IMG/VR virus record: IMGVR_UViG_3300045988_128069
DNA length: 55,904 nt
Strand: one strand, 5' to 3'
Source of the DNA: a virus
In this document: positions 3,059 through 43,688 of the stretch, one piece after another
How positions within the stretch are numbered: position 1 is the first letter of the stretch
How the letters are laid out: each line of letters opens with the position of its first letter
Position numbers and translations under genes: made by a program
Notes under the pieces: model-generated
The model's input: only the letters and a program-made list of their open reading frames with translations
Told to the model about the DNA's origin: nothing
The model's database searches: none

Positions 3059-3690
3059 CAACACATACCATTGCCCTTGCCCGCCACACCGCGCAGGTGG
3101 TGGGGCTGGCGGGCGTGCTGGTGCTGGGCACCTGGGACAGTTACGGCACCGAACAGCTGCTGCTGCGCCCCGGCCCGGAGTGGGAGGGGCTGGCGATTGA
3201 TGCAACCTTCCACAACGTTTCTGGCGATGAAGGCGTGACCGTACTGGCGGACACAGACGGCCTTGTGTCCGTCCCGCCGGAAGCCTGTATGCGGGCATCC
3301 AAGTACGCGACCATCACGTTCCGCGGCGTGCAGGATAGCGTACAGGATAGCGTGCAGCGCATCAGCTGCAACCTGCCCTATATGGTGCTGGATCACGCCC
3401 AGGTGCCCGGTGCCAACAGTACCGCCACCCCCAGCGAAAACGCCCAGGCGCTGGCCCAGATGCAGACCCTGCGGGACGGCGCTGTGGATGCCAAAAACCA
3501 GGCCGAAGCTGCCCGCGACGATGCCGCCCACAGTGCCGAGCTTGCCCAGCAGGCTGCCAACAACAACGGCTTTGCCGCACTGGAAATTGACCCAGACGGC
3601 AACCTGCAGCTGACCCGCACTGAAAATCTGGCGAACAAACTGGATTTTGCAATTATTAACGATAATTTGGAGGTGACTATTTATGGCTGA
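3055..3690 (+). CDS. Tail fibre / baseplate-associated structural protein (function inferred from position)
   Basis: 211-aa ORF between the tail and fibre genes; C-terminal Ala/Gln-rich coiled coil similar to the start of the next gene. Confidence 0.55.
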   Translation: MTTHTIALARHTAQVVGLAGVLVLGTWDSYGTEQLLLRPGPEWEGLAIDATFHNVSGDEGVTVLADTDGLVSVPPEACMRASKYATITFRGVQDSVQDSVQRISCNLPYMVLDHAQVPGANSTATPSENAQALAQMQTLRDGAVDAKNQAEAARDDAAHSAELAQQAANNNGFAALEIDPDGNLQLTRTENLANKLDFAIINDNLEVTIYG

Positions 3691-6061
3691 TACGATTAAA
3701 ACCAATCTCGGCCCTGTAACCGCATATGCCGATGCCAAAGCACACGGCTACACCGGCACGCGGGAGGAATTTGGCCAGCTGCTGGCCGGTGCCGCCGGTA
3801 ACTTGCAGGATGCTGTTGCCGCCAAAGAGGGCGCGGAAGCGGCCAAAGAGGGTGCGGAAGCCGCAAAACAGGCGGCAGAAACCGCCCAGCAGGCCGCTGC
3901 CGAGAATCAGAAAAACGCTGGAACCCAGGCAGCAAACGCCAAAGCATCTGCTGATACTGCCGCCGAGCAGGCCAACGCTGCCAAAGAAAGCGCCACCGGT
4001 GCCGCGAACAGTGCATCCGCTGCCCAGGAATCCGAAACCAACGCGGGCCTATCCGCCACTGCCGCTGCCAACGCCGAAGCCGCCGCCAAGCAGGCCCAGA
4101 ATGCTGCCGAGACTGCCAAAACGGATGCCGAAGCCGCCAAAACAGCTGCTGGCACCAGTGCGGATGCAGCAGCTAACAGTGCTGCGGATGCAAAGAAAAC
4201 GCTTGAATCTATCCCGGCGGACTATAGCGCCCTGAGCGGAAAGGTGGATGATAATACCAGCGGGATTCGTGAGCTAAAGGAAGATATAAGTAACAGAGGG
4301 ATTGTAAACGGTGGGAAAAATCTAATCGGTAATGAAGCGGACAAGTTATACGCAGTAGGGCGTCTCCCGGCCGGCACAAAGCTTACAATAAGTATGAAAG
4401 ATGGCGGACTTTTAACTGGCGCAAATTTGAAGTGTTACGATGGAACAAAAACTTATGTGAACTATTATAATGCATATAACACCAATAAGCGTAGAACATT
4501 TACATTAGATTTCGATATATCCTATGTAGCCCTTACGAATGTAATATCAAATAGGCCAATGCAACTTGAAATCGGAGATACCGCAACAGAATTTGAAGAT
4601 TATGCACCGAATGTGGCACAATCCATGAATTTAGTAGAAAACGAATATGAAGAATTACGAAAAGCAGATGAAGAACACTCAATTATTTCCACAGCGATAA
4701 ACACAGGTGTTGCACAATCGCTTATATTTTCTTCCTTTGGTTATTATAAGTCTGGAACTTTAAAATATGGTCTAGGAAGTACGGGAGAAAAAATAACAGC
4801 TGATTATTATAATGCCGAGATAAATGCAGGTTCTTCAGCGATACAATCTTTGTTCGGAAAGCTGAGACAGCCCATTGCATATTCGGATACTAAAACCTTA
4901 TACGTTATTATTACAAGTTCAATTGCTGGACTAATTTCATTGCATTTATCTGCAGGGGCGAATTGGGCTCCATCAAATAACCCATTGGTCGGATCATTAA
5001 TCTTAAAAAAAGGTACAAATATTTGTAAAGTGGAATTAAAAAAACAGTATTCACATGAGGTTTCTCCATCAGAGAAAGATTTCACATATGTGTTGTTTCA
5101 AGCAGGTTCTGCAACTGCATACAAGAATTTTGTGTTTGATGCTTATGTTTTTGATAATTCAAATTTATATGATATATTAACTTCTTTTGATTTATCTGAA
5201 TATTACACCAAAAGCGAAATTGATTCACTTATAGAAAACTCTAGTTATAATTACAAAATTATATTTTGGGGGGATAGCCTGACCGCGGGTGCTGGTGGGA
5301 ATGGCACAACATATCCAAAAGTATGTGCAGAGGAATTAGGAATTACAAATTATCTTAATGCTGGTGTTGGTGGAGAAACAGCTAATACTATTGCAAGTCG
5401 AAATGGCGCTAATAACATGATAATTCCTGCTGGAGGTGTTAATGGTCAATATAATATTGGAGATTTAAAGGATGCTTATGGAACTAATATCTTACCGTTA
5501 AGACAAGGTACTGGGGGGGATACTGTAAACCCAATAGTAATTAATGGACATGAATGCACATTAAGTCTTAGCCAAACAAGTTACACTGATGCAAACGCCA
5601 CTTATACCATTACCGGCTATACTGGAGAGCCGACAACATATCCAATGCCTTGCAAATTCTCCGGATGCAATTTAACAGCTGATATTACAGTAATATTTGT
5701 TGGACAGAATGGACCATCTTTTGAACAGAGATTGAGCATTATTGATAGCATCGTGAGTCGAACGAACGGTAAATATATTGTGCTTACTCTAAGTTCCGGA
5801 ACGGAAGAACAGATGAAAACGCAAGAAGCGACTATGCTATCAAAATACGGAAATCATCTTTTCAAAACGAGGGAAATGTTGGCTAATTATGGCATGTCTA
5901 TGATGGGTATGTCGCCAACGGATGAAGATGCGTCGGCAATAACTAACGGGACTGTACCGCCTAGTCTAAGAATCGATAGCGTACACCTTAATGCGAATGG
6001 ATATACTGCTCTTGGTAAAATGCTTGCGACACATATTAGGGCACTTGGGTATGTTAATTAA
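3683..6061 (+). CDS. Tail fibre with Ala-rich coiled-coil stalk and C-terminal SGNH/GDSL hydrolase (esterase) domain
   Basis: RBS GGAGGTG; SGNH blocks FWGDSLTAG, GVGGETA, VGQNG, DSVHLN in the last ~260 aa. Confidence 0.8.
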   Translation: MADTIKTNLGPVTAYADAKAHGYTGTREEFGQLLAGAAGNLQDAVAAKEGAEAAKEGAEAAKQAAETAQQAAAENQKNAGTQAANAKASADTAAEQANAAKESATGAANSASAAQESETNAGLSATAAANAEAAAKQAQNAAETAKTDAEAAKTAAGTSADAAANSAADAKKTLESIPADYSALSGKVDDNTSGIRELKEDISNRGIVNGGKNLIGNEADKLYAVGRLPAGTKLTISMKDGGLLTGANLKCYDGTKTYVNYYNAYNTNKRRTFTLDFDISYVALTNVISNRPMQLEIGDTATEFEDYAPNVAQSMNLVENEYEELRKADEEHSIISTAINTGVAQSLIFSSFGYYKSGTLKYGLGSTGEKITADYYNAEINAGSSAIQSLFGKLRQPIAYSDTKTLYVIITSSIAGLISLHLSAGANWAPSNNPLVGSLILKKGTNICKVELKKQYSHEVSPSEKDFTYVLFQAGSATAYKNFVFDAYVFDNSNLYDILTSFDLSEYYTKSEIDSLIENSSYNYKIIFWGDSLTAGAGGNGTTYPKVCAEELGITNYLNAGVGGETANTIASRNGANNMIIPAGGVNGQYNIGDLKDAYGTNILPLRQGTGGDTVNPIVINGHECTLSLSQTSYTDANATYTITGYTGEPTTYPMPCKFSGCNLTADITVIFVGQNGPSFEQRLSIIDSIVSRTNGKYIVLTLSSGTEEQMKTQEATMLSKYGNHLFKTREMLANYGMSMMGMSPTDEDASAITNGTVPPSLRIDSVHLNANGYTALGKMLATHIRALGYVN

Positions 6062-6082: not shown

Positions 6083-7492
6083 ATGAGATTATCCAACGAA
6101 GACGTCCTATTGCATTGGCCCCTAGTCCAGCACATTATCACCGCAGGCTGGCTCTACAATGACGGCAGCCTGCACCGCGCGCTGGATTTCCGCGCAGCAG
6201 TTGGTACCCCTGTGTACGCAGCGGAAGCAGGCACGGTGGAGACGGCCTACCGCTGGAACGGCAAGCGCACCCAGGGCGATATCAACAGCTACGGCAACAT
6301 GGTCAAGCTGCGCCACACGACCTACAAGTACGGCACATTGGAGACACTGTACGCCCACCTGAGCAAGCTCTGCGTGGCCCAGGGGGAAACGGTATACGAG
6401 GGCCAGCTGATCGGCTACAGCGGGGATACCGGCAACTGCTATGGCGCGCACCTGCACTTTGAGGTCAGGTGGAAAGGCCAGCGCACCAACCCGCTGAACT
6501 GGCTGGATGCTGATTTTAGCACAGCATCCGTTGCCGTCAAACTGGGCAACTACAGCAGCGTAGCGCACAACATGAAGGAAGTGGAATACATGAATTATGC
6601 AATCGACGTGTCAAAACATCAGGGCAAATTCAACTGGCAAGCCGCCTACAACAAGGGCATCCGCCACGCCATGCTGCGCGCCGGGTATGGCCGTTACAGC
6701 AGCCAGAAAGACCCCCAGTTTGAGCGCAACGCGGCTGAGTGTGCCCGGCTGGGCATCCAGTACGGCGTATACTGGTACAGCTACGCCACCACGCCGGGAG
6801 AAGCCCGGCAGGAGGCACGCTGCTGCCTGGCCGCGATCCAGGGCAAGCATCTGTGCTTGCCGGTGGCCTATGACCTTGAGTACGAGCCGTGCATTTTGCG
6901 CCTGACCAACGCGCAGCGCACGGCTCTGGTAGAGGCGTTTTTAAGTGAGATCGAAGCCGCAGGGTATTACGGCATCCTGTATGCCAGCTGCGATTTTATC
7001 CGCAATCGCCTGGACTGGAAAGCCTTGTCCAAATATGATGTCTGGGTGGCGCAGTACGGCAGCGCCTGCACCTGCCCCCTGCCGTATGGCATCTGGCAGT
7101 ACAGCAGCCGCAACGCCCTGGGCATCCCCGGCTACGGCACCAGCCTGGACTGCAACCGGGTCTACAAGGACTATGAGCAGTTGATGATCCAGGCAGGCTT
7201 GCAGGGCCACACCGCGCCCACCCCGGAGGACACCACCCCCAACAAGCTGGACAAGCAGCGTATTACCATTGGCCGTATCTCCAGCGGCGACCGCACAACC
7301 ATTCGCGCCATGTGCGAGGGGCTGGGGCTTATCTCCGCCGGCCTGTACCGCGAAACCTGTGCGGATGGCAAACAGTGGATGCTGGACGTTGGGCCGGTAT
7401 CCAGCGGCGACGCCTGGTACATCATGCGCAAGTGCGCAGAGCTGCAGCTGATTGATGCAGGGCTGTATAAGGCTGAGTATGTGGAGGGGTGA
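6083..7492 (+). CDS. Modular endolysin: M23 peptidase + GH25 muramidase + two C-terminal ~35-aa repeats
   Basis: HRALDF and GAHLHFEV (M23); IDVSKHQG...DLEYE (GH25); repeats RISSGDR..GLISAGLY / PVSSGDA..QLIDAGLY; AAGGAG RBS before ATG 6083 (track start 6074 is TTG). Confidence 0.85.
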   Translation: MRLSNEDVLLHWPLVQHIITAGWLYNDGSLHRALDFRAAVGTPVYAAEAGTVETAYRWNGKRTQGDINSYGNMVKLRHTTYKYGTLETLYAHLSKLCVAQGETVYEGQLIGYSGDTGNCYGAHLHFEVRWKGQRTNPLNWLDADFSTASVAVKLGNYSSVAHNMKEVEYMNYAIDVSKHQGKFNWQAAYNKGIRHAMLRAGYGRYSSQKDPQFERNAAECARLGIQYGVYWYSYATTPGEARQEARCCLAAIQGKHLCLPVAYDLEYEPCILRLTNAQRTALVEAFLSEIEAAGYYGILYASCDFIRNRLDWKALSKYDVWVAQYGSACTCPLPYGIWQYSSRNALGIPGYGTSLDCNRVYKDYEQLMIQAGLQGHTAPTPEDTTPNKLDKQRITIGRISSGDRTTIRAMCEGLGLISAGLYRETCADGKQWMLDVGPVSSGDAWYIMRKCAELQLIDAGLYKAEYVEG

Positions 7493-7496
7493 TACG

Positions 7497-7796
7497 GTGA
7501 AAAAATTGTTTATCTCCCAGCCGATGCGCGGCAAGACCGACGAGGAAATCCTCAAAGAGCGCAAGGTGCTGACTGCTGATGTGCACATGAAAACCCATGA
7601 GGAAATCGAGGTCATCAAATCCTTTTTTGAGAGCGCCCCGACTGACGCAGCACCGCTGTGGTATCTGGGCGAAAGTCTCAAATTGCTGGGCACCGCCGAT
7701 TTTGTAGTGTTCGCCCCCGGCTGGCATGATTATCGTGGGTGCCGTATTGAGCATGACGCTGCTGTAGCCTATGGAATTCCCATCGTGGAGGTGTGA
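7497..7796 (+). CDS. DUF4406-like (nucleoside 2-deoxyribosyltransferase-like fold) protein
   Basis: GTG 7497 after GGAGGGG; pattern ISQPMxG...GW..xRGCxIE..A..YGI. Confidence 0.5.
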   Translation: MKKLFISQPMRGKTDEEILKERKVLTADVHMKTHEEIEVIKSFFESAPTDAAPLWYLGESLKLLGTADFVVFAPGWHDYRGCRIEHDAAVAYGIPIVEV

Positions 7797-14755: not shown

Positions 14756-15907
14756 CTATAAAACGCTTTCCAATTTTTTGCGGGCATCTTCCATCATTTG
14801 GGGCTTTATAGACAAATAAACCTCGTGAATCATTTTAGCATTAGCGTGGCCCACAAGTTGAATGGCTATTTCTTCTGCTACTCCTGCCATTGCCAGCATG
14901 CAAACATACTCATGACGGAACTGGTGCCCGCAAACGGGAACTTTCCAAACAGTGTATTTTACAGTTTCTACCCTGTTGCGCCGATGTACCTGTTTGGTTT
15001 TTGGCACTGCCTGTGCAACGCCGTATTTCTTCCAGAACCGCGCCCAGAGAATATCATATTGCTTGCGCGTTATTGGTTCGGTTTTTAAGCCCACAATATA
15101 GGTGTTTTTTGGCAGCGTTCGTATTGGCTGCAATGCGTCTTTTAACATCCCCAATAATGGAACCTCCCGGATACCGGCAGGGGTTTTTGTAAAGTCATTT
15201 AAGATTGGTTCGTTACCGATATGTGTAACGGTCTTTGATATGCTGATAACATTTTTTTCAAAGTCAATGTCTTTCAGCTGAATGGCGCACATTTCACCGC
15301 GCCGTTCTCCTGTGCAGAGATAAGCAACGGGGAGAAGTGCATCAGGGTCAAGATAGTGTTCCTTTACGATTTGCACTTCGGCTGTTGTTGGGGGCTGCCG
15401 TTTGCCCTTATGCAGGCCGCGCGGCATTTTGGTCTGTGCGGCTGGGTTTATATCCCCACGCCACTTAGGGCTGTCAATCCAATACTGGAAGATGTTGTTT
15501 ATCACAGTCTTTTGGTTTGAAACGGTCGTTGCGGCCCTCCCGGCCATTTCAGGCCCGCGCAGAAACTCTGCAATCATGTAAGGCTCAATTTCCCGCATTC
15601 TGTATTCACCAAATTCGGTTTTGGCACGCTTGATGGCTGGCAGATAACTTCTTTTTGTTCCCTCTTTCATGCCGGAGACAATGATTTCATATTCGTTTGC
15701 CACAGTTTCAAACAGTGGCCCGGCGGATGCTTTTGCCTTTTCCTGCTGTTCCTTTTCTTCATGCTCTTCTTTGGCATCCTCAATCTTTTGCCAAACCTCT
15801 GCTGGTGTCTTAGCTGAAAAGGTTTTCCAAATGCCACCTATCATCTCTTTCCGCTGGTATCTTCCGTCTTTTCTGTGAAAGAGCCCAACTGTCAAATCCT
15901 TTTTCAT
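14756..15907 (-). CDS. int: Tyrosine recombinase / phage integrase
   Basis: C-terminal HQFRHEY..LVGHAN..EVYL catalytic region; GGAGGG RBS before ATG 15907 (track ORF extends to 15922). Confidence 0.9.
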   Translation of the reverse strand: MKKDLTVGLFHRKDGRYQRKEMIGGIWKTFSAKTPAEVWQKIEDAKEEHEEKEQQEKAKASAGPLFETVANEYEIIVSGMKEGTKRSYLPAIKRAKTEFGEYRMREIEPYMIAEFLRGPEMAGRAATTVSNQKTVINNIFQYWIDSPKWRGDINPAAQTKMPRGLHKGKRQPPTTAEVQIVKEHYLDPDALLPVAYLCTGERRGEMCAIQLKDIDFEKNVISISKTVTHIGNEPILNDFTKTPAGIREVPLLGMLKDALQPIRTLPKNTYIVGLKTEPITRKQYDILWARFWKKYGVAQAVPKTKQVHRRNRVETVKYTVWKVPVCGHQFRHEYVCMLAMAGVAEEIAIQLVGHANAKMIHEVYLSIKPQMMEDARKKLESVL

Positions 15908-16007
15908 CTTGCAGCCCTCCAAAAAATGTTTTATAATGAAACCGTCAACTTTTCATGTTGACGGCCCTTTATCCCTTGCTGGTGTGGCACCACCGGCAGG
16001 GGATTTT

Positions 16008-25745: not shown

Positions 25746-26531
25746 ATGAGCAATGAGGGTTATATCAAAATTTATCGCCAAATACGTGATTGGAAATGGT
25801 ACTCTGACGGCCCTACAAAAGATGTTTTCTTGCATTTGCTTGTAACGGCAAGTTTTGAAGATAAATTTTATCGAGGAATCGCGGTAAAACGCGGACAGTC
25901 TGTTTTGACTGTCGAAGAAATTAGAGAAGAGACGGGCCTCACAGTACGTCAAATTAGAACTGCGATAAACAGGCTAATTTCGACAAACGAAGTGACAAAG
26001 CAAGCTACATATAAATTTACCGTGTACACGATAAATAACTATGAGCATTACCAGAGCGGCGGCAATCTTAGTGACAAACCAACGACAAACCAACGACAAA
26101 CCAACGACAAACCTTTAGATACTAAGAATGTAAAGAATGTAAAGAATACCCCCTATACCCCCCAAGGGGGTGACGCGATTTCTCCTCAATTTGACACCTT
26201 CTGGTCAGCCTATCCCAGGAAGACAGGCAAGGCAGATGCACGCAAGAAATTTGAGAAGCTTGTTACTGAAGAATCCACCTTGTCCGCAATCTTGAAAAGC
26301 CTTGAGTATCTCAAGACCACAGAGCAGTGGAAGAAAGAAAATGGCAAGTATATTCCGTATCCTGCTACCTGGCTGAACCAAAAACGTTGGGAAGACGAAA
26401 CGGCACAGCCACCTGCTGAACTCCGCAAGTCTAAAAACCTGATTCCCATCTATGACCGGGAATATACACGTGAGGAACTGATTAACGGAGTTGTTCCGAA
26501 GCTCATTGGGTGGAAGGAGGAAGGCAAATGA
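25746..26531 (+). CDS. Replication initiator / replisome organizer (winged-helix N-terminus, DnaD-like C-terminal motif)
   Basis: FWSAYPRKTGKADARKKF..YIPYPATWLNQKRWEDE; upstream of the helicase. Confidence 0.6.
   Translation: MSNEGYIKIYRQIRDWKWYSDGPTKDVFLHLLVTASFEDKFYRGIAVKRGQSVLTVEEIREETGLTVRQIRTAINRLISTNEVTKQATYKFTVYTINNYEHYQSGGNLSDKPTTNQRQTNDKPLDTKNVKNVKNTPYTPQGGDAISPQFDTFWSAYPRKTGKADARKKFEKLVTEESTLSAILKSLEYLKTTEQWKKENGKYIPYPATWLNQKRWEDETAQPPAELRKSKNLIPIYDREYTREELINGVVPKLIGWKEEGK
26073..26141. repeat. Iteron-like tandem repeats inside the initiator gene (11 bp x3.7, then 9 bp x2.7)
   Basis: GACAAACCAAC at 26073, 26084, 26095 (+ partial); AAGAATGTA at 26124, 26133 (+ partial). Confidence 0.8.
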
Positions 26532-35177: not shown

Positions 35178-35283
35178 TTGCATATTAGCGCATAATATGC
35201 TATAATATCAATAAGAAATAGCGTGCCAAGTGCTTAATTGCCAAGTGCCAGTTGAACTTGAAAGTTCGGCTGGCACTTTTGCT
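35178..35283 (+). promoter_or_regulatory. Late cassette copy 1: promoter + tandem (GT)GCCAAGTGC + terminator hairpin
   Basis: TTGCAT-17-TATAAT (35178..35206); GTGCCAAGTGC 35223..35233, GCCAAGTGC 35240..35248; 16-bp hairpin 35243..35278 then TTTTG. Confidence 0.6.
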
Positions 35284-35296
35284 ATATGGAGGGCAC

Positions 35297-36054
35297 ATGA
35301 AACTATACTGCGCAGACTGCATGGACATCTTGAAGGGGATACCAGAAGGCAGTATAGACATGATTTTATGCGACCTGCCCTATGGTACAACGCGGAACAA
35401 ATGGGATGTCATCATCCCGCTAGAGCCGCTATGGGCGCAATACATGCGCATAATCAAAAGCAATGGCGTTATAGCACTGCACAGCGATATGCCATTTACA
35501 GCGGCCCTTGTAAGCGCTGGGAAAGACTTGTACCGGTATGAGCTGATATGGGTAAAGGAAAACGGTAGCGACTTTCTGAACGCAAACCGCAAGCCCCTGA
35601 AAGCGCATGAAAGCATCCAGATATTCTATAAGCACCAGCCGACTTATAACAAGCAATATGTGGACGGAAAGCCCTATAAGAGGGGGGGGGCAAGGGAGAA
35701 AGGCTTCCCAAAAACTGGGGAAAGTTTCGTGACGACATCTTAACAGACTGTAGTGACGGCAAGCGGAACCCCACAACAATTCTGAAATTCCCAAGGGAAA
35801 AGGGATTGCACCCCACCCAAAAGCCTGTAAAGCTGGAAGAATGGCTGATTAAGACGTACACAAACCCAGGCGAGACGGTATTAGACAACTGCATGGGCAG
35901 CGGAACAACCGGAGTAGCCTGTATCAACACAAATAGAGACTTCATCGGGATAGAGAAGAACCCCGACTATTATAAAACGGCCATAAGCCGGATAAAGGAG
36001 GCACAGGACAATGGGAAGCAGGGCAACCAAAAGAAACAGCCCGATCATGATTGA
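35297..36054 (+). pseudogene. DNA methyltransferase (N6A/N4C, beta-class) split by a frameshift in a G9 tract
   Basis: DLPYG (motif IV) in 35297..35743; LHPTQKPV and CMGSGTTG (motif I) in the frame of 35806..36054; frames meet at G9 35682..35690. Confidence 0.8.
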
Positions 36055-36619
36055 TAATGACCCTGATAATGTGCCGGAAGGGAATCAAAGACGAATTGAA
36101 TTTCTGCTTGTGATATCCCAGCTTCCCAAAATAAGCACAAACGACCTGCCAGCCCTCAGAAAACGCTTTTATGACTATCTTGATCTATGTGTCAAGTATA
36201 ACATGAAAGTGGGCAACATGGCGGCGTATGCGGCTATGGGAGTGGATAGAGACACTGTAAACTGCTGGGAAAGCGGAAAAAGGCGCAGCTCGCAAAAGGA
36301 ATACCAAGAATTCGCGCGAGAAATAAAGCGTGTATGCGGGATGTACCGGGAAATGCTGATGCAGGACGGTGCAATCAACCCGGTAACAGGGCTATTCTGG
36401 CAGAAAAACTACGATGGACTGCAAGACCAGCAAGAAATCATTACCGCAACAAAAGACCCGTTAGGCGAAAACATGTCCCGCAAGGAAATAGAAGACAGAT
36501 TCAGTGCCGACTTTGTAGAGATAGACGACTTTAAGGAAGTCAAAGAGCCGGAGCAACTGATAGAACCGGTTCAAACAAAGCCATGCAGGGAAAAGAAACA
36601 AGCAAAAGAAACTGAATAA
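36011..36619 (+). CDS. terS: Terminase small subunit (gp3-type DNA-packaging protein)
   Basis: AAGGAGG RBS; LDLCVKYNMKVGNMAAYAAMGVDRDTVNCWESG..INPVTGLFWQKNYDGLQDQQE. Confidence 0.55.
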   Translation: MGSRATKRNSPIMIDNDPDNVPEGNQRRIEFLLVISQLPKISTNDLPALRKRFYDYLDLCVKYNMKVGNMAAYAAMGVDRDTVNCWESGKRRSSQKEYQEFAREIKRVCGMYREMLMQDGAINPVTGLFWQKNYDGLQDQQEIITATKDPLGENMSRKEIEDRFSADFVEIDDFKEVKEPEQLIEPVQTKPCREKKQAKETE

Positions 36620-36994
36620 ACGAAAACAGAGCATCTAGCAGCATATAAACAAACTGCCGGGTGCTCTTTTATCATGCCTATAACCACGCAAAGAAACGCG
36701 CTATTCGCTTAAATGCCATAGTAAAGCCTAAAACCAGCGCGGAAATGCCTGTTAAAGGCAGCAGTAAACCCCAAAAAAGCGGGAAAGCAGAGGGGAATAA
36801 AGCCCAAAAGAGGAAAATAAAGCAGGGGATAACGTGAACAATTTGCCGTCATCATCAAAAAAGACCCCTAAACACGAATAATTATCCCACCTTTAAAAAA
36901 CATCTCTTGAAACAAATCTCCATGTGAAATGGTCAAAAATACGGGGATTATACCAAAGTGATGCAACTAAAATACATAATATGAGAAAATCACC

Positions 36995-37544
36995 CGACTT
37001 TCAGACCAATTCGACTTTGAACCCGTTCGACTTTATCAGCCGCAAACCCCTGAACCCCGTCCGACTTTGGCTGGAATGCTCTTGATTGCAACAATACTGC
37101 ATGCGAAATAAGCAAAAACACGGGGTATATACCTGGATCATGAAACAAAAGTACATAACGCAAACCCAATTTGACTTTGCCGGAGATTTTTTCGTGCAAA
37201 ATCATTCGACTTTTCGGAAGGGGATACCCCTTCGACTTTGGGAGTGTTTCGACTTTAATTCGACTTTCAAACCCGTTCGACTTTGGCAGCGGGATGCAGA
37301 CTGGCGCACCCTGACCGCAGTGTCTTCCGGCCCGGCGGATATGATCCCCAGGACGGCTCCAGCTGGGCAAAATGTGCCTTTTGGGTACATATTTCGCTAA
37401 ATAATGATTTAGCGAACATCGAATTGACGTTGCAACGCGTATTAAATTTTGGAAGCAGCCCAAAAGCACAAAAGTGCATAAAAAAGCGCCGCCGGGGATG
37501 CCGGAAGCGCTAGAATTCATTCGACTTTCAAACCGATTCGACTT
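36995..37544 (+). repeat. Array of 12 co-oriented (T)TCGACTTT repeats in three clusters
   Basis: cgacttt at 36995, 37012, 37028, 37062, 37207, 37233, 37250, 37261, 37278, 37522, 37538; variant tgacttt at 37172. Confidence 0.85.
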
Positions 37545-37728
37545 TGCCCGCATCGCGATCCCGCCGCTCTTGGCAGGCCTGCAAGATATAGGCTTGAAGA
37601 CTCTGCCCGGCGGCTGCTGCATCCGCGCGGATCTGTGCGCCCTCCGGCTTATCTGGACGTATCATTATATTATCACGCGCCTTATTATATTTAACGCTGG
37701 CCCGCGTGTGGGCCTCTGTAACTGCCAT
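37528..37728 (-). CDS. Arc/CopG-type ribbon-helix-helix protein
   Basis: GGAGGTG RBS; NIMIRPDKPEGAQIRADAAAAGQSLQAYILQA. Confidence 0.6.
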   Translation of the reverse strand: MAVTEAHTRASVKYNKARDNIMIRPDKPEGAQIRADAAAAGQSLQAYILQACQERRDRDAGKVESV

Positions 37729-37748
37729 GCGATCACCTCCGTGCTCTC

Positions 37749-37855
37749 ATTATACCATAATATGATATAACCGTAAACGTACAAATACAACCACAAAAAA
37801 ACCGTTAACGTTGTGCAAAATGTCAATAGACAATAACCGTTAACGGTGATATGAT
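37749..37855. promoter_or_regulatory. Divergent promoters with ACCGTTAACGGT-type operators
   Basis: + strand TAGACA-17-TATGAT with a perfect 12-bp palindrome 37836..37847 in the spacer; - strand TTTACG-17-TATAAT overlapping AACCGTAAACGT; third site 37801..37812. Confidence 0.55.
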
Positions 37856-37900
37856 ATAGACATCAAAAGAAAACAGCCCACAGGGCAGGAGGTAGCAAGA

Positions 37901-38167
37901 ATGAAAATCACAGACGGCAAGCGCACGGTAGAAATCAATATCATGACCTGGAACGGCACCGGGTACGGCCCGGACTGGGCGGAAGAATATTTCAACGCGG
38001 GCATGCTCCCGCACGATGAGGAGACGGACACCTACACGGTGCAAGATGTGCAGTATTGCATTGATATGGCGGATGACACCGGGGAAGAGGGAGCGCGGTG
38101 CAAGTGTAACAATGGTGGGGAGTATGCGCCAGATGATAATACAGAGGTATTTGTAACCGAGTTATAA
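37901..38167 (+). CDS. Small strongly acidic protein (88 aa)
   Basis: Track ORF, RBS GCAGGAGG; many Asp/Glu, few Lys/Arg. Confidence 0.55.
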   Translation: MKITDGKRTVEINIMTWNGTGYGPDWAEEYFNAGMLPHDEETDTYTVQDVQYCIDMADDTGEEGARCKCNNGGEYAPDDNTEVFVTEL

Positions 38168-39109: not shown

Positions 39110-39170
39110 GCTAATGAGGGGGTTATAACCGGAGCTATTGCAATAGCGCGGGATAGAGGGGGTGTTTTAT

Positions 39171-39239
39171 ATGCTGGTTGTTTTGTTCCTGTTAGCTTCT
39201 CCGTTTATCATCATTTTTGGCGTGATGCGCCATTTTTAA
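39171..39239 (+). CDS. 22-aa hydrophobic peptide (MLVVLFLLASPFIIIFGVMRHF)
   Basis: RBS AGAGGGGG; immediately followed by a strong terminator. Confidence 0.3.
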   Translation: MLVVLFLLASPFIIIFGVMRHF

Positions 39240-39254
39240 GCAATATATAGCGGA

Positions 39255-39289
39255 GCGCCTGGGCCGTATGGCCTGGGCGCTTTTTTATT
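39255..39289 (+). terminator. Strong intrinsic terminator
   Basis: 11-bp GC-rich stem 39255..39265 / 39270..39280, then TTTTTTATT. Confidence 0.8.
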
Positions 39290-39666
39290 GTCTTCGGGCG
39301 GAGTGCTCCATTCTGCCCTGCATTTTTTGTACATGATCGGCGGGGGTATACCGGAGGGGGATTTTGGCAGGCCGAAGGGCGCGGGGTTAGTCCCTCCAAT
39401 CCCGAAAAAATAAAAAAGTCCCTTTCCCCCAATTCCCGAATTCAAAACCCCAAAAATCAAAAAGTCTTTTTAAAAGTTTAAGATCTTCAAAACATCCAAA
39501 GTATACACCCCACATGCCGGCAATTCAACAAAAATCAATCCCGTCAACCAAATAATAACCGCGTACACATTCTTGGGTGTAACTTTGTGCAACCTGCCTA
39601 TTGTATTCGTACCCATAAATGTGTACAATAAGGTCAATCTAAAAAGCAAATCAGGAGGGGATAAAC

Positions 39667-40356
39667 ATGGAAATCAAACCTATGGGTAATACAGAACAGG
39701 AAAAAATGTCCAGCTTGTGGGGTTATTTCATCGGGTGCTGCAAAATCCTTGATGATGTTACAATCGAGTATAAAGAACCCTGTGTATCGGATTACTACCT
39801 CAATCACATTAGCGCTATGCAAAGCAAAACAATCCTTTCCGGCATGGAAAAATTTCATACCCTTGCTAATGAGCGTGTGGTTAACATGCCCTCTAAACTC
39901 TATTCTCAAGGCAAAGCCGTTCTGGACGTAATGACTGCTATTGTTGCCGCCAGCGGTAAATACCCGATTGCCAAAACCAGAATCGCAAACCTGCATGAAT
40001 TTGAGCTGCTGGCCCGTGCGACAATCGGTACCTGCTGGAGAGAGGGTAATATGCTCAAGGTTGTCCGCAATCTGGAGGGTATCTCTCTACAAAAACTGGC
40101 GGAAAAAAGCGGCGTCAGCAAAAACACAATTTTCCGCATTGAAAACAACCAGTCTATCCCGCGCATTGATGTTCTGCGTAAGCTTGCCGATGCTCTGGAA
40201 GCCCCTCTGGAACTTGTAGCCATCGGCATTGGCAAAACCGAACCGGAAACAACCCCCGAAGAAGAAGTCCCTAACCCCAATGCCCCTAAATTGCCAAGCG
40301 TTTACGACAGCCAGGATCGTAGCGCCGACGATGAAATCAAAGCTTTTCAAGAATAA
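39667..40356 (+). CDS. Protein with unknown N-terminal domain and C-terminal XRE-type HTH
   Basis: LQKLAEKSGVSKNTIFRIENNQ HTH in the C-terminal half; RBS AGGAGGGG. Confidence 0.6.
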   Translation: MEIKPMGNTEQEKMSSLWGYFIGCCKILDDVTIEYKEPCVSDYYLNHISAMQSKTILSGMEKFHTLANERVVNMPSKLYSQGKAVLDVMTAIVAASGKYPIAKTRIANLHEFELLARATIGTCWREGNMLKVVRNLEGISLQKLAEKSGVSKNTIFRIENNQSIPRIDVLRKLADALEAPLELVAIGIGKTEPETTPEEEVPNPNAPKLPSVYDSQDRSADDEIKAFQE

Positions 40357-40370
40357 AAAGGTAAACCACA

Positions 40371-41111
40371 ATGCCTCAAAAATTAGAAATTGCACCCGGC
40401 ACTGTTTTTGGCCAGTGGACTGTCATTGGCCGTTCTAAGGACCCGGCAAAAGCGAAAAAAGGATACCTTGAATGCCGTTGTTCTTGCGGAACTGTTTCTG
40501 ATGTTTCCGGGCACTCACTTATTAGCGGGAAAAGCAAATCATGCAAAAAATGCGGGCATGCAAGATCAGCGCTTACTAAATTAGAGGTGAACACTAAAAA
40601 TTCAAAAGAAAAATATGAGGGGAAAACAATCAACGGGTTTTTTATAAAAAAGATTGTTGATAAAGAAAAAAGCGGCACCTGTACCAGATGTATTGCAATT
40701 TGTCCCAAGTGTGGGCGCGAATTCACAACGCGGTTGTCAAGCATAAAAAATTTACAATTCTGTGGTCATTGCGAACGAGACAAAAAAGAACTATTGGAAA
40801 TAACCAGAAAAGTCGTAAACGTAGATGGAACCGACTTGGCAAAAATTCGTTCGCGCGTAAATGGAACAGTAAATAAAAACTCTAAAACCGGGGTAAACGG
40901 TGTTGCACTTACCAAAAAAGGAACCTACAAAGCATATATTAGCTTTAAGCACAAACTCATTCACCTTGGCTTCTTCACCAATCTAAAAGATGCAGTCGCT
41001 GCCAGAAAAGAAGCCGAAGAAATTCTTTACAATAAATTTTTAGACGATAACGCCGGTTGGGAACAGCGCCTGGCAGACGCAATGGCCGAACACAAAAAGA
41101 ACAAGAAATAA
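40371..41111 (+). CDS. Zn-ribbon + AP2-like DNA-binding protein, paralog 3 (AT-rich gene directly upstream of terL)
   Basis: GTVFGQWTV..CRCSCG..SCKKCGH; TGVNGVAL..YKAYISF..AARKEAE. Confidence 0.65.
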   Translation: MPQKLEIAPGTVFGQWTVIGRSKDPAKAKKGYLECRCSCGTVSDVSGHSLISGKSKSCKKCGHARSALTKLEVNTKNSKEKYEGKTINGFFIKKIVDKEKSGTCTRCIAICPKCGREFTTRLSSIKNLQFCGHCERDKKELLEITRKVVNVDGTDLAKIRSRVNGTVNKNSKTGVNGVALTKKGTYKAYISFKHKLIHLGFFTNLKDAVAARKEAEEILYNKFLDDNAGWEQRLADAMAEHKKNKK

Positions 41112-41363
41112 CCGTCAACTTCGCCAAAGCTTAATTTGGCGAAATATAGGGGACCCAATAAAATTTTCAAACCCCCTTGATGGCTTTGAACCCGCAATCG
41201 ATTTCGCCATTCAAACTATCAAGATCTCCACGCCTACCCCATCCGGCAAGCGTGAAGATCTTCACGCCAAAGTCCTTTCCGTCTCTGAGCTATAGAAACG
41301 AATCACAATAAAACCGCAAAAATTTCAAAAAACAAAAAAGGCCGAAAATCAACGATAAACAGT

Positions 41364-41464
41364 TTGTCTGCAACGGAAAACGATGCTATAATAATAAAAA
41401 TAGTGCCAAGTGCCCTGTGCCAAGTGCCTTTTCTCAAATTTGAGGGAGGGCGCTTTTTTATTTT
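41364..41464 (+). promoter_or_regulatory. Late cassette copy 2: promoter + tandem GTGCCAAGTGC + terminator hairpin
   Basis: TTGTCT-17-TGcTATAAT (41364..41392); 11-mers 41403..41413 and 41417..41427; hairpin 41424..41453 then TTTTTTATTTT. Confidence 0.6.
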
Positions 41465-41495
41465 GAAAATTTCTGAAATTGCAAAAGAGAGCACA

Positions 41496-43073
41496 ATGCG
41501 AGCCAAGACAGCGGACGGAGCAGTTTATGCGTTTGCTGCGATCCGGGAACTGGAAAAAGAAAACTTCAAGCAGGCGCACAAGCTGAGTGTGGATTTGCAT
41601 AATAAGCTGGGTACGCTGCCGCGCTGCAATGACCTGATTGAGCTGAACCGGAATCTGCTGCTGTTCAATGCGCCGTATAACTTTGATTCCTTTTGCCAGT
41701 ACATTGAACTTGACCGTGACCCCAAAAGCCGGTTTTATATGCCGCGCCGAAAGCAGCTGATTCGGATGGTAAACACCCTGCAAAAACTGGAAGACGGGGA
41801 ACTGGACATTGCAGGAATCATGATGCCGCCCGGCACCGGGAAAAGTACCACTGCCATTTTTTATCTGACATGGCTTGCCGGACGGAACCCCGACATGCCG
41901 ATTTTAGGCGGAAGCCACAGCAACGCATTTCTGCGCGGCGTGTACGATGAATGCCTGCGAATTATGGCAAAAGGCGGGGAATATTTGTGGCGAGACGTGT
42001 TTCCCGGCGTGTGCATTGCCAGAACGAATGCGCAGGACATGATGATAGACATGTACAAGCCAAAGCGCTTTGCCACACTGGAATTTTCTTCTATCGGCAG
42101 CGGCAATGCGGGCAAGGTGCGTGCGCAAAAGCTGTTATACTGCGATGACCTTGTAAGCGGCATTGAGGAAGCCATGAGCCGGGAACGCATGGATAAGCTG
42201 TGGCAGCTGTATACAACGGATTTGCGGCAGCGCAAAATTGGTGAATGCCGGGAACTGCACATTGCCACACCCTGGAGTTTGCATGACCCGATGGACAGGC
42301 TGGAACGTAACAACGAAAACAACCCCAGGGCTGAATTTTTGCACATGCCTGCCCTGAACGAGGAAGAAAAAAGCAATTTTGATTATGCCAACGGGGTAGG
42401 GTTCAGCACCAAGTTTTATATTGACATGCGGGAATCAATGGATGATGCCAGCTGGCGTGCATTGTTTATGACAAGCCCGATTGAACGGGAAGGGCAGCTG
42501 TACCCAGAAGATCAGCTGCGCAGATACTTTGAGTTGCCGGATAAAGCGCCGGAAGCCATTATTGCAGTATGCGATACCAAAGAAAAAGGTTCTGACTATG
42601 CGGTTCTGCCCGTTGCATACAAATACGGGGATGATTTTTACATTGAGGAATGTGTTTGCGATAACGGCGCACCGGAAGTGGTGGAAACGCGGCTCTGGAT
42701 GGTTCTTGTAAAACATAAGGTTCAGCTGGCCCAGTTTGAAAGCAACAGCGCAGGCGGAAAAGTGGCAGAAAAATGCCAGCAGGAAGTAAAGGCGCACGGC
42801 GGAATAACCAGGATTGTGACCAGGTACACTACCGCAAACAAGGAAACCAAAATCATTGTAAATTCACCTTGGGTGATGGAACACTGCCTGTTCAAAGATA
42901 ATTCCGTTATCAAGAATAACAAGGAATACAGGCGTGTTTTGTCGTTTTTAACAGGGTACACAATGGCAGGGAAAAACAGACATGATGACGTGCCGGACGC
43001 ATTTGCAATGCTTGCACAATACGCTCAAGGCCTAAATGCGGGCAAAGTTGAAATTGGGACAAGAATTTGGTAA
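41496..43073 (+). CDS. terL: Terminase large subunit
   Basis: Walker A IMMPPGTGKST, C-terminal nuclease-like region; track ORF 41364..43073, first ATG at 41496. Confidence 0.8.
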   Translation: MRAKTADGAVYAFAAIRELEKENFKQAHKLSVDLHNKLGTLPRCNDLIELNRNLLLFNAPYNFDSFCQYIELDRDPKSRFYMPRRKQLIRMVNTLQKLEDGELDIAGIMMPPGTGKSTTAIFYLTWLAGRNPDMPILGGSHSNAFLRGVYDECLRIMAKGGEYLWRDVFPGVCIARTNAQDMMIDMYKPKRFATLEFSSIGSGNAGKVRAQKLLYCDDLVSGIEEAMSRERMDKLWQLYTTDLRQRKIGECRELHIATPWSLHDPMDRLERNNENNPRAEFLHMPALNEEEKSNFDYANGVGFSTKFYIDMRESMDDASWRALFMTSPIEREGQLYPEDQLRRYFELPDKAPEAIIAVCDTKEKGSDYAVLPVAYKYGDDFYIEECVCDNGAPEVVETRLWMVLVKHKVQLAQFESNSAGGKVAEKCQQEVKAHGGITRIVTRYTTANKETKIIVNSPWVMEHCLFKDNSVIKNNKEYRRVLSFLTGYTMAGKNRHDDVPDAFAMLAQYAQGLNAGKVEIGTRIW

Positions 43074-43256: not shown

Positions 43257-43331
43257 GTCGCTATAGTTTAATGGCAAAACTCCTGGCTCATAACCGGGTG
43301 CTTGCAGGTTCAACCCCTGCTGGCGGCACCA
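43257..43331 (+). tRNA. tRNA-Met (anticodon CAT; could be initiator, elongator or Ile2-type)
   Basis: Hand-folded cloverleaf: 7-bp acceptor, D arm GTTT/AAAC, anticodon loop CTCATAA, T arm GCAGG-TTCAACC-CCTGC, encoded CCA. Confidence 0.8.
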
Positions 43332-43613: not shown

Positions 43614-43688
43614 GCTGTTATAGCTCAATGGTAGAGCAGCCGCCTTGTAAGCGGCAGGCTACTGGTTCAAGTCCAGTTGGCAGCTCCA
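43614..43688 (+). tRNA. tRNA-Thr (anticodon TGT)
   Basis: Cloverleaf: acceptor GCTGTTA/TGGCAGC, D arm GCTC/GAGC with GG, anticodon loop CTTGTAA, T arm ACTGG-TTCAAGT-CCAGT, CCA. Confidence 0.85.

Follow-up and report, generated by a model that had tools for sequence, protein, structure and literature searches.

The pac site of phage P1 contains hexamer repeats arranged in two groups (of four and three copies), which flank the cleavage region and are located within or next to the gene of the small packaging subunit. The P1 hexamer is palindromic and controlled by Dam methylation, and IHF/HU takes part. In phage lambda, whose cos system includes a defined nick site and a bend introduced by IHF, the repeated element of cosB (R3, R2 and R1) lies beside terS, is bound by the small terminase subunit (TerS; gpNu1) and positions the large subunit (TerL) for cutting. 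The pac site of SPP1 is composed of two sets of direct repeats, pacL and pacR, which are bound by TerS and flank the cut site, pacC (PMC6316719, PMC4737164).

We analysed an array of short repeats located downstream of terS in a viral genome (IMG/VR record IMGVR_UViG_3300045988_128069); the whole analysed stretch of 55,904 nucleotides is referred to below as the window. The array resembles the pac sites of SPP1 and SF6 (whose TerS is designated G1P) in two respects: (i) sets of short direct repeats are located beside terS and (ii) two repeat sets flank an interval, which is the place of cleavage in SPP1 and a candidate for it here. It differs in that the SPP1 site overlaps promoters and the 5′ end of terS, while the array lies 375 bp downstream of terS, between convergent terminators. 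The copy number is also higher than in SPP1 (6 core copies and up to 12 in total), the repeats are strictly co-oriented, and the TerS protein belongs to a different, gp3-like family (phrog_606). The arrangement of two motif groups round a central interval is shared with P1 (4 + 3 copies in P1; 6 + 2-3 here), but the interval extends over 235 bp here, more than in P1, and the motif is asymmetric, with all copies in one orientation. A split DNA methyltransferase is encoded just upstream of terS and the array motif contains TCGA, which is mentioned here with regard to the comparison with P1. The locus shares with lambda a repeated element beside terS, but its TerL groups with those of pac-type phages. 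From these and the following sequence comparisons, we consider it rather probable that the array is a cis-acting pac-type region, responsible for terminase recognition and the initiation of packaging.

Organization of the locus and of the repeat array

The window is a temperate siphovirus-like genome, with tail and lysis genes and an integrase gene. The early genes encode an anti-repressor, Erf, NinB, a replication initiator, a DnaB-like helicase and RusA, and genes of a dUTPase and of the split DNA methyltransferase are also present. The array is placed in a non-coding gap of approximately 900 bp that follows terS. It is succeeded by a leftward gene encoding a ribbon-helix-helix (RHH) protein, several small ORFs, and genes of an HTH protein and an AP2/HNH-associated DNA-binding protein. 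The terL region, which also contains two tRNAs, the portal gene and the major head protein gene, begins approximately 4 kb from the array, which is thus sited between terS and terL. The features of the locus are summarized in Table 1.

Table 1. Features of the terS-terL region and other elements of the window referred to in the text
Feature	Coordinates	Strand	Basis or remarks
Integrase gene	14756..15922	-	
Replication initiator gene	25746..26531		
Six [CT]GACAAAC iterons within the initiator gene	25981..26113		four in tandem at 11-bp spacing
AT-rich palindrome within the initiator gene	26008..26043		
terS (202 aa; P22 gp3-like family, phrog_606)	36011..36619	+	profile search
Intrinsic terminator of the terS transcript	36622..36675	+	hairpin of -19.1 kcal/mol (z -5.4), then UUUUAU; kept in relatives
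A/purine-rich non-coding spacer	36676..36906		sequence; most variable intergenic part (mean variability 0.10, without codon periodicity)
Module copy 1 (duplicated): 73-bp unit (36907-36979) and cluster 1	36907..37085	+	about 9 of 44 relatives
Module copy 2 (core array): 73-bp unit (37086-37158) and cluster 2	37086..37290	+	all relatives
Palindrome GGTATATACC within the 73-bp unit of module copy 2	37124..37133		
CGACTTT copies	36995, 37012, 37028, 37062 (cluster 1); 37207, 37233, 37250, 37261, 37278 (cluster 2); 37522, 37539 (cluster 3)	+	
TGACTTT variant (cluster 2)	37172	+	
Conserved non-coding spacer between clusters 2 and 3	37291..37473		conservation in relatives
Perfect 10-bp inverted repeat, TTCGCTAAAT-N4-ATTTAGCGAA	37393..37416		hairpin of -10.5 kcal/mol
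Intrinsic terminator of the leftward RHH transcript	37474..37522	-	hairpin of -17.7 kcal/mol, then UUUUUU; kept in relatives
Cluster 3: two TTCGACTTT copies, 17 bp apart	37520..37545	+	sequence
RHH regulator gene (neighbour of the array, not part of it)	37528..37728	-	weak NikA-like match (E 3e-4)
Divergent promoters with ACCGTTAACGGT-type operators, probable RHH target	37749..37863		promoter scan, operator/allele covariation; promoters at 37777-37749 (-) and 37827-37855 (+)
terL, large terminase subunit	41364..43073	+	phrog_38, E 3.5e-56; 4.7 kb downstream of terS

The assignment of the ORF at 36011-36619 as terS is reasonable; it relies on profile and fold searches, in which the similar proteins carry computational annotations. 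The product of the ORF matches phrog_606 (E 3.5e-7), as do 21 of 25 diverse members of the TerS family (best E-value, 6e-11); two family members gave a weak match to the Pfam family GP3_package, and an NCBIfam search with the family gave nothing useful. The AF2 model of TerS (pLDDT 68) contains a confident helical core (residues 23-118). A fold search of BFVD with this model yielded seven matches at E <= 5e-4, mainly carrying terminase small subunit or gp3 annotations; six of the seven are annotated as terminase small subunits. In the PDB, TerS had no match by sequence, even at E <= 10, and no significant match by fold, and a sequence search with TerL at the same threshold was likewise negative.

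The nearest characterised relatives of TerL, found by tblastn, are those of pac-type phages (Tuc2009-like lactococcal phages and phages of S. thermophilus). The initial annotation had argued for headful packaging from the SPP1-type portal and MuF-like composition of the head module; the kinship of TerL backs this argument weakly, at an identity of only 24-28%. The closest annotated TerL (41%) is that of Clostridium phage Maintenon, which is uncharacterised; in this phage terS lies 2.6 kb upstream of terL, and an array of TTTAAAAGA is located just upstream of terS. Among GenBank phages, blastn revealed no close relatives and tblastn with TerS found a single match (27%). We regard the phage as a temperate, probably headful-packaging, siphovirus of gut Clostridia.

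The heptamer CGACTTT occurs in the window in 22 copies, as compared with the expected 6.3 +/- 2.6; none of 100 shuffled sequences reached 22 copies. The array itself (36995-37545) contains 11 copies of CGACTTT and one of TGACTTT, all in the same orientation on the + strand, while the expectation for CGACTTT in a stretch of 551 bp is approximately 0.03 copies per strand. Nine copies carry a TT prefix, giving the longer form TTCGACTTT, and many are preceded by AACCC(G). The successive copies are separated by 17, 16 and 34 bp in cluster 1, by 35, 26, 17, 11 and 17 bp in cluster 2, and by 17 bp in cluster 3. The spacings of 17, 26 and 35 bp do not correspond to whole turns of the helix, so simple wrapping of one DNA face round a TerS ring does not fit, and neither does a simple arrangement with one HTH per turn account for the geometry.

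The repeats of this array had been recognised in the initial annotation. Its coordinates of the heptamers are right (including that of TGACTTT), with the sole exception of position 37538, which should read 37539, and the location of all copies on one strand was borne out. The two imperfect direct repeats of approximately 75 bp described there are real (36907-36979 and 37086-37158; 74% identity), and form part of an old duplication of a whole 179-bp module, comprised of the 73-bp unit and the repeats. A 27-bp super-unit, reported as occurring three times, is present in two exact copies (37258-37284 and 37519-37545); the third (37009-37034) differs in its length of 26 bp and its spacing of 16 bp. 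The placement of the array immediately downstream of terS was not upheld, since the first repeat lies beyond both the terminator and the A-rich stretch. The ORF spanning the repeats (36990..37622, - strand), dismissed earlier as the repeats read in translation, is indeed not a real gene: neither this ORF nor the other small ORFs of the gap matched any protein family, and it lacks codon periodicity.

The terS terminator on the + strand and the RHH terminator on the - strand place clusters 1 and 2 in a gap between convergent terminators. An Rfam search of the region 36400-38100 found nothing relevant, and a consensus scan of the + strand (36700-37800) detected no sigma-70-like promoter, which is a weak test for activator-dependent promoters. 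The position of the main array between the terS and RHH terminators, with no promoter or RNA family detected there, argues for a pac-type site.

Conservation of the array in close and distant relatives

A scan of IMG/VR with TerS identified 44 loci at 93-100% identity, which constitute the close relatives of the window (about 45 near-identical viral contigs, most of them from one large dataset). A scan with TerL, aimed at contigs with swapped terS or array, returned the same contig set only. The CGACTTT array was present in every TerS-close and TerL-close contig, and array, terS and terL always occurred together. The initial annotation had pointed to related phages as the place to look for the motif beside terS, and it was found there in all 44 close loci. 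Such co-inheritance with both terminase genes in every relative argues for a pac-type site.

The core spacing (+35/+26/+17/+11/+17) is kept in most of the 44 relatives, and the changes observed in the core cluster are occasional gains or losses of 11- or 17-bp units. About 10 of the 44 lack cluster 3, which sits at a mosaic junction: homology of the relatives to the window breaks at position 37515 or 37545, and the sequences beyond are mosaic. In most relatives cluster 3 contains 2-3 copies, often 17 and then 11 bp apart, so that the conserved interval of 235 bp separating clusters 2 and 3 has 6 + (2-3) copies on its two sides. The RHH gene, the initiator gene and a cassette located at 39.4-41.3 kb (encoding the HTH and AP2-like proteins; absent from many relatives) vary while the array stays. 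The ends of short related contigs were considered as possible physical termini; they coincide with the mosaic RHH junction and were judged to be assembly breaks.

An alignment of 42 sequences of relatives was used to compare variability within the array (nine positions per core repeat). Core repeat positions vary approximately five times less than the spacers (0.0096 vs. 0.052; Mann-Whitney p = 4.6e-5), which indicates that the repeats are functional DNA elements. Variation in the gap shows no 3-nt periodicity anywhere, which indicates that the region is non-coding. The aligned sequences thus identify the array as non-coding DNA under purifying selection, and the selective conservation of the repeats, together with their spacing, is a further point in favour of a pac-type function.

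More distant TerS homologues (27-51% identity) are common in prophages of Clostridia, including Lachnospiraceae, Oscillospiraceae, Anaerotignum and Butyricicoccus, and in gut viral contigs. The loci of these homologues (6-8 kb) were scanned de novo for clustered identical 7-mers, and those with at least 5 copies were counted. In about 20 of 24 distinct loci, the strongest cluster was located inside terS or within approximately 200 bp of it, against a positional expectation of about 16%. These arrays, found with TerS homologues of 27-45% identity, consist of co-oriented short repeats, whose motifs are either related to CGACTTT or different. They include (i) GGTACGG in 10-11 copies (spacing 11/11/11/17) just upstream of terS (L105/L106), (ii) nine copies of ATCGACTAT as a 13-bp tandem directly after the terS stop codon (L109), (iii) GCGACTAT and GCGACTTT spanning the terS stop codon (L175 and L176) and (iv) seven copies of ACGACTTT downstream of terS (L118). 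In a further group (L107, L184, L188 and L193), terS is followed by a terminator, 6-8 direct copies and one inverted copy, approximately 100 bp of intervening DNA, and two more copies. The arrays of L118 and of another locus, L027, are built of CGACTTT, and those of the L107 group of TGACGAT or GGGACGAT. Many of the distant loci contain a primase gene upstream and an FtsK-like gene between terS and the TerL homologue.

Two scans of 2.9 million IMG/VR viral contigs were performed with motifs only, which removes the bias of searching with TerS. The first used TTCGACTTT-N8-TTCGACTTT. Outside the group of the window, it found CGACTTT arrays of at least 7 copies in two lineages only, both beside terS: in L027 the array follows the terminator of a TerS-family gene whose product is 27.6% identical, and in L048/L041 an array of TCGACTTTTCGA precedes an unrelated terS-terL operon (TerL of phrog_2) by 170-330 bp. 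The second scan (three copies of GGTACGG at 11-bp spacing) revealed GGTACGG arrays of at least 6 copies in four lineages: upstream of terS in L105/L106, 420 bp downstream of an SPP1-type TerS gene (phrog_51) in L398/L409, 630 bp upstream of a terS (phrog_10899) and terL pair in L431, and at the contig end in L411. Counted lineage by lineage, 5 of 6 independent lineages place large arrays of this kind beside terS. This is the strongest evidence, within these sequence comparisons, that such arrays are terminase-associated, and their occurrence beside terS in both distant and unrelated phages favours the pac-type reading of the array in the window.

Alternative functions of the array

The array could instead be the site of another DNA-binding protein, encoded by the phage or the host and acting at the early/late boundary, such as a late activator (like that of the Alt boxes, direct repeats that precede the late promoter of TP901-1) or a nucleoid or roadblock protein. 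The proximity of terS would then reflect the boundary between early and late modules and not recognition by the terminase. We regard this as unlikely, yet it is the chief rival of the pac-type reading. The array does lie at the boundary of the early/replication and morphogenesis blocks; the arrays of L105 and L048 precede terS, as late promoters usually do, and those of L105 embed TATAAT. The spacing, being out of phase with the helix, would also be in keeping with a protein that forms polymers along the DNA.

A different specificity factor would, moreover, predict that the motif shifts while TerS remains near-identical, and this is observed in the L107 group. The repeat motif does not covary with the DNA-binding domain of TerS: the TerS proteins of L107, L184, L188 and L193 differ by a handful of residues, yet three different motifs occur in their arrays (GGTGACGAT, GGGACGAT, GGGACATTA and TGACGATA), and the TerS variants do not track the motif. 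TerS of the window and of L105 have a common HTH helix (GNMAAYAAMGVD), and the motifs of their arrays are different. A neighbouring gene that could encode such a factor and tracks the motif was, however, not found in the 6.5-kb loci of the L107 group. Two contigs of this group extended to 16-20 kb contain several variable segments, in a comparison limited to two or three genomes. A gene of phrog_1392, located beside the GGTACGG arrays of L105 and L409, was considered and rejected; neither the window nor the other array loci checked contain it.

Several further observations speak against a late activator. The main array lies between convergent terminators, the consensus scan found no + strand promoter after it, and the rightward operon could be served by a good divergent promoter further on (the rightward one of the RHH region). 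Upstream, no gene resembling that of a late activator was detected. With no promoter 3′ of the repeats and no candidate activator gene, an activator-dependent late promoter of the TP901-1 Alt type was rejected. The motif-only searches, in addition, landed beside terS of unrelated families, on either side of the gene.

For a pac-type site, the lack of covariation in one subgroup is discordant with the otherwise favourable comparative evidence, and the initial proposal of a pac or TerS-recognition region is supported in part. A parallel is provided by SPP1 and SF6, whose repeats differ though their TerS proteins are interchangeable: SF6 TerS replaces SPP1 TerS despite different boxA repeats, and the contacts of its HTH with pac DNA are largely non-specific with regard to sequence (PMC4737164). 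On this precedent, covariation of motif and TerS is not obligatory for pac-type sites. It is also possible that recognition is relaxed and common, since a GAC core is shared by many of the motifs and CGACT[TA]T by six lineages.

A second replication origin was among the functions first suggested for the array. In SPP1, the origin oriR lies in the late region alongside moron genes, and shares its initiator protein with the origin located in the initiator gene (PMC6316719). The array resembles such a site in that co-oriented, iteron-like repeats with an A-rich flank are placed in a late-region gap containing moron genes. The true iterons, [CT]GACAAAC, begin with CGAC or TGAC, like the array motif, and several distant loci have a primase gene directly upstream of terS and the array. 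The initiator gene of the window nevertheless already contains a classical origin, with iterons and an AT-rich palindrome. Its relatives carry three initiator alleles (about 98%, 69% and 67% identity), each with its own in-gene iterons ([CT]GACAAAC, yAACACAG and GGGCACAG, respectively), and the CGACTTT array is the same in the contigs of each class. In contrast to the iterons of SPP1 oriR and similar origins, the repeats of the array do not track the initiator, whose iterons lie in its own gene. This covariation, with the array invariant, led us to reject an oriR-like second site, which we now hold to be very improbable.

Equally improbable is that the array contains host Spo0A-like sites, through which sporulation and the development of the phage would be coupled, as they are in phi29. 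Spo0A recognises 0A boxes arranged as tandem direct copies approximately 10-11 bp apart. The reverse complement of the motif, AAAGTCGAA, contains GTCGAA, which agrees with the 0A box (TGNCGAA) at six of seven bases; GTCGAA is found on the - strand in nine copies, and the hosts of related prophages are Clostridia. The first base of the box is, however, wrong in every array copy, and most spacings are 16-35 bp. Related arrays (L109, L118, L175, L176 and L027) conserve CGACT[TA]T and not the CGAA end, and the motifs of other relatives are unrelated.

The RHH protein is a very improbable reader of the array. Known centromere-binding proteins of this class do recognise short direct repeats arranged in arrays, and a centromere-like or operator array of the kind known from ParR/parC, ParG and the omega heptads, proposed initially as a further alternative, would explain why short direct repeats lie beside an RHH gene. 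Such a gene adjoins the array throughout the group of the window, another flanks the GGTACGG array of L105/L106, and cluster 3 overlaps the 3′ end of the RHH gene in the window. This overlap results from a deletion of approximately 70 bp found only in this genome; in most relatives the RHH stop codon and cluster 3 lie approximately 70 bp apart. Virtually every relative has an RHH gene at this position, represented by at least 5 alleles, with 96%, 72-74%, 66% or 43% identity to that of the window, or below tblastn detection (an Arc-like protein in L062). Each allele has its own palindromic operators in its own divergent promoter region (ACCGTTAACGGT in the window; ACCGTATACGGT, ACGTATACGT, CATGCTAGCATG and ATGCAAATTGCAT in the others), whereas the CGACTTT array is unchanged across all of them. 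The covariation indicates that the RHH protein is an autoregulator of 37749-37863 and not the reader of the array, and excludes the earlier suggestion. The phage also encodes an integrase, and no partition NTPase (ParA/ParM) was found among the ORFs scanned near the locus and in the replication/early region, which distinguishes it from the partition systems named above. Arm-type sites of attP were rejected as well, the integrase gene being 21 kb away.

Predicted role in packaging and significance

Further observations count against the pac-type reading that we favour: (i) the array lies further from terS (375 bp) and terL (4 kb) than textbook pac sites, (ii) cluster 3 is dispensable in about a quarter of the relatives and (iii) the primase genes just upstream in several distant loci are compatible with origin function there. 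If the array is a pac-type site, oligomeric TerS would assemble on the core cluster (37172-37284), with its co-oriented TTCGACTTT repeats, and would also use the accessory clusters (36995-37068 and 37522-37545) where these are present. The resulting nucleoprotein complex may recruit TerL for an initial cleavage close by. This cleavage may take place in the conserved interval of 235 bp that separates clusters 2 and 3, or at the palindrome at 37124-37133. Unidirectional headful packaging of concatemers would follow. The proposed packaging site lies in a transcriptionally quiet gap between convergent terminators.

We predict the array to be a further representative of a known class of sites; it does not constitute a novel type of system. 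The more interesting by-product of the analysis is the presence of arrays beside terS in many lineages, with turnover of the motif without change of TerS. The occurrence of three motifs with near-identical TerS, and of arrays of the same heptamer beside unrelated TerS families, raises the speculative and, in our estimation, quite improbable idea that the arrays beside terS serve as a modular "packaging address", which evolves fast and can be exchanged in sequence while TerS stays the same. If this were true, recognition would depend on array geometry or DNA shape and not on base readout, or else on a specificity adaptor, and co-resident phages and satellites in gut Clostridia could separate or hijack packaging.

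The mismatch between TerS and motif bears on the specificity of small terminases, for which the comparative set offers natural variants. A possible rule for annotation is that the strongest cluster of co-oriented short repeats within a few hundred bp of terS predicts pac. If confirmed, the array would provide a sequence-level pac site for abundant, uncultivated temperate phages of Clostridia of the human gut. Predicted pac sites of this kind may serve to forecast generalised and lateral transduction, to design packageable vectors and to read the coverage patterns of viromes.

Array motifs and palindromes downstream of terS

Four of the viral loci compared (L107, L184, L188 and L193) encode TerS proteins that are 95-99% identical, and the flanks of their arrays, which lie approximately 60-270 bp after terS, are homologous (approximately 84-92% identity). 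Despite this similarity of TerS, the array motifs differ: GGTGACGAT, GGGACGAT, GGGACATTA and TGACGATA, respectively. The change is concerted over the entire array, including two distal copies and an inverted copy. No gene covarying with the array motif was found within these four loci.

The array of the window is accompanied by a perfect palindrome and a perfect inverted repeat (see table), both of which are retained in relatives. They may constitute cleavage sites or sites for accessory proteins. The repeat motif of the array contains TCGA, and DNA methyltransferase ORFs adjoin terS.

Coordinates of the features discussed (window, unless another locus is named)
Feature	Coordinates	Remarks
Probable replication origin	25981-26113	inside initiator gene (25746-26531); iterons and AT-rich palindrome
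Split N6/N4 DNA methyltransferase, first ORF	35252-35743	phrog_12862/phrog_67
Split N6/N4 DNA methyltransferase, second ORF	35806-36054	phrog_67
Perfect 10-bp palindrome GGTATATACC	37124-37133	~40 bp upstream of core cluster
Perfect 10-bp inverted repeat TTCGCTAAAT-N4-ATTTAGCGAA	37393-37416	between clusters 2 and 3
RHH gene with divergent promoter/operator region	37528-37863	L062 counterpart, 7333-7680
Divergent promoters by RHH gene	37777-37749 (-); 37827-37855 (+)	
Variable cassette	39422-41323	upstream of terL; HTH_3 and 246-aa proteins
HTH_3 protein	39667-40356	in cassette
246-aa protein	40371-41111	matches 'HNH endonuclease' PHROGs via Zn-ribbon and AP2-like segments
tRNA-Met (CAT)	43257-43331	between terL and portal gene
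tRNA-Thr (TGT)	43614-43688	between terL and portal gene
Cys-rich protein, phrog_1392	L105, 6644-7333; L409, 1589-2257	adjoins GGTACGG arrays

Distant TerS loci and GGTACGG arrays

Among the distant TerS loci (L107-L119 and L177-L209), one gene order recurs: primase-helicase, small HTH, terS-like gene, FtsK/SpoIIIE-like gene and TerL homologue. The FtsK-like ATPase gene, placed between the terS-like gene and the TerL homologue, is located on the opposite strand, and the TerL homologue follows 3-4 kb later. In one TerS homologue, P0098, which is also matched by the NCBIfam noc/parB models, an N-terminal ParB_N domain (PF02195) is fused to the TerS-family protein.

The phrog_1392 gene accompanies GGTACGG arrays in two phages (L105 and L409) whose TerS families differ; it is absent from the window. 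In approximately 50 viral contigs (L375-L436), most of which come from a single dataset, GGTACGG is present exactly three times with 11-bp spacing, and no homologue of the terminases tested was found near these sites. In L390, the sole example inspected, the three copies lie within what looks like coding sequence.

Genes flanking terS and terL

The methyltransferase ORFs lie directly upstream of terS and overlap its start; a frameshift may account for their arrangement, or they may represent a pseudogene or a split enzyme. The cassette upstream of terL is missing in many relatives, in which 39129-39422 is joined directly to terL, and has the appearance of an inserted mobile or homing-type element.

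Variable tail, initiator and RHH genes

Within the tail protein gene (3683-6061), the G+C content at 4001-6000 decreases to 0.37-0.44, compared with approximately 0.57 on both sides, and because of this decrease a recent exchange of a receptor-binding segment is suggested.

The probable replication origin, which lies within the initiator gene, comprises [CT]GACAAAC iterons in six copies, of which four are in tandem with 11-bp spacing, as well as an AT-rich palindrome (26008-26043). Three initiator alleles occur among the relatives, and the in-gene iterons change in step with them ([CT]GACAAAC, yAACACAG and GGGCACAG). The alleles and their matching iterons form a clean natural covariation series.

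The RHH gene is represented by at least five allelic classes among phages that are otherwise nearly identical, and every class has its own set of palindromic operators in the divergent promoter. These allele/operator sets resemble an immunity-type regulatory switch preceding the genes toward terL.
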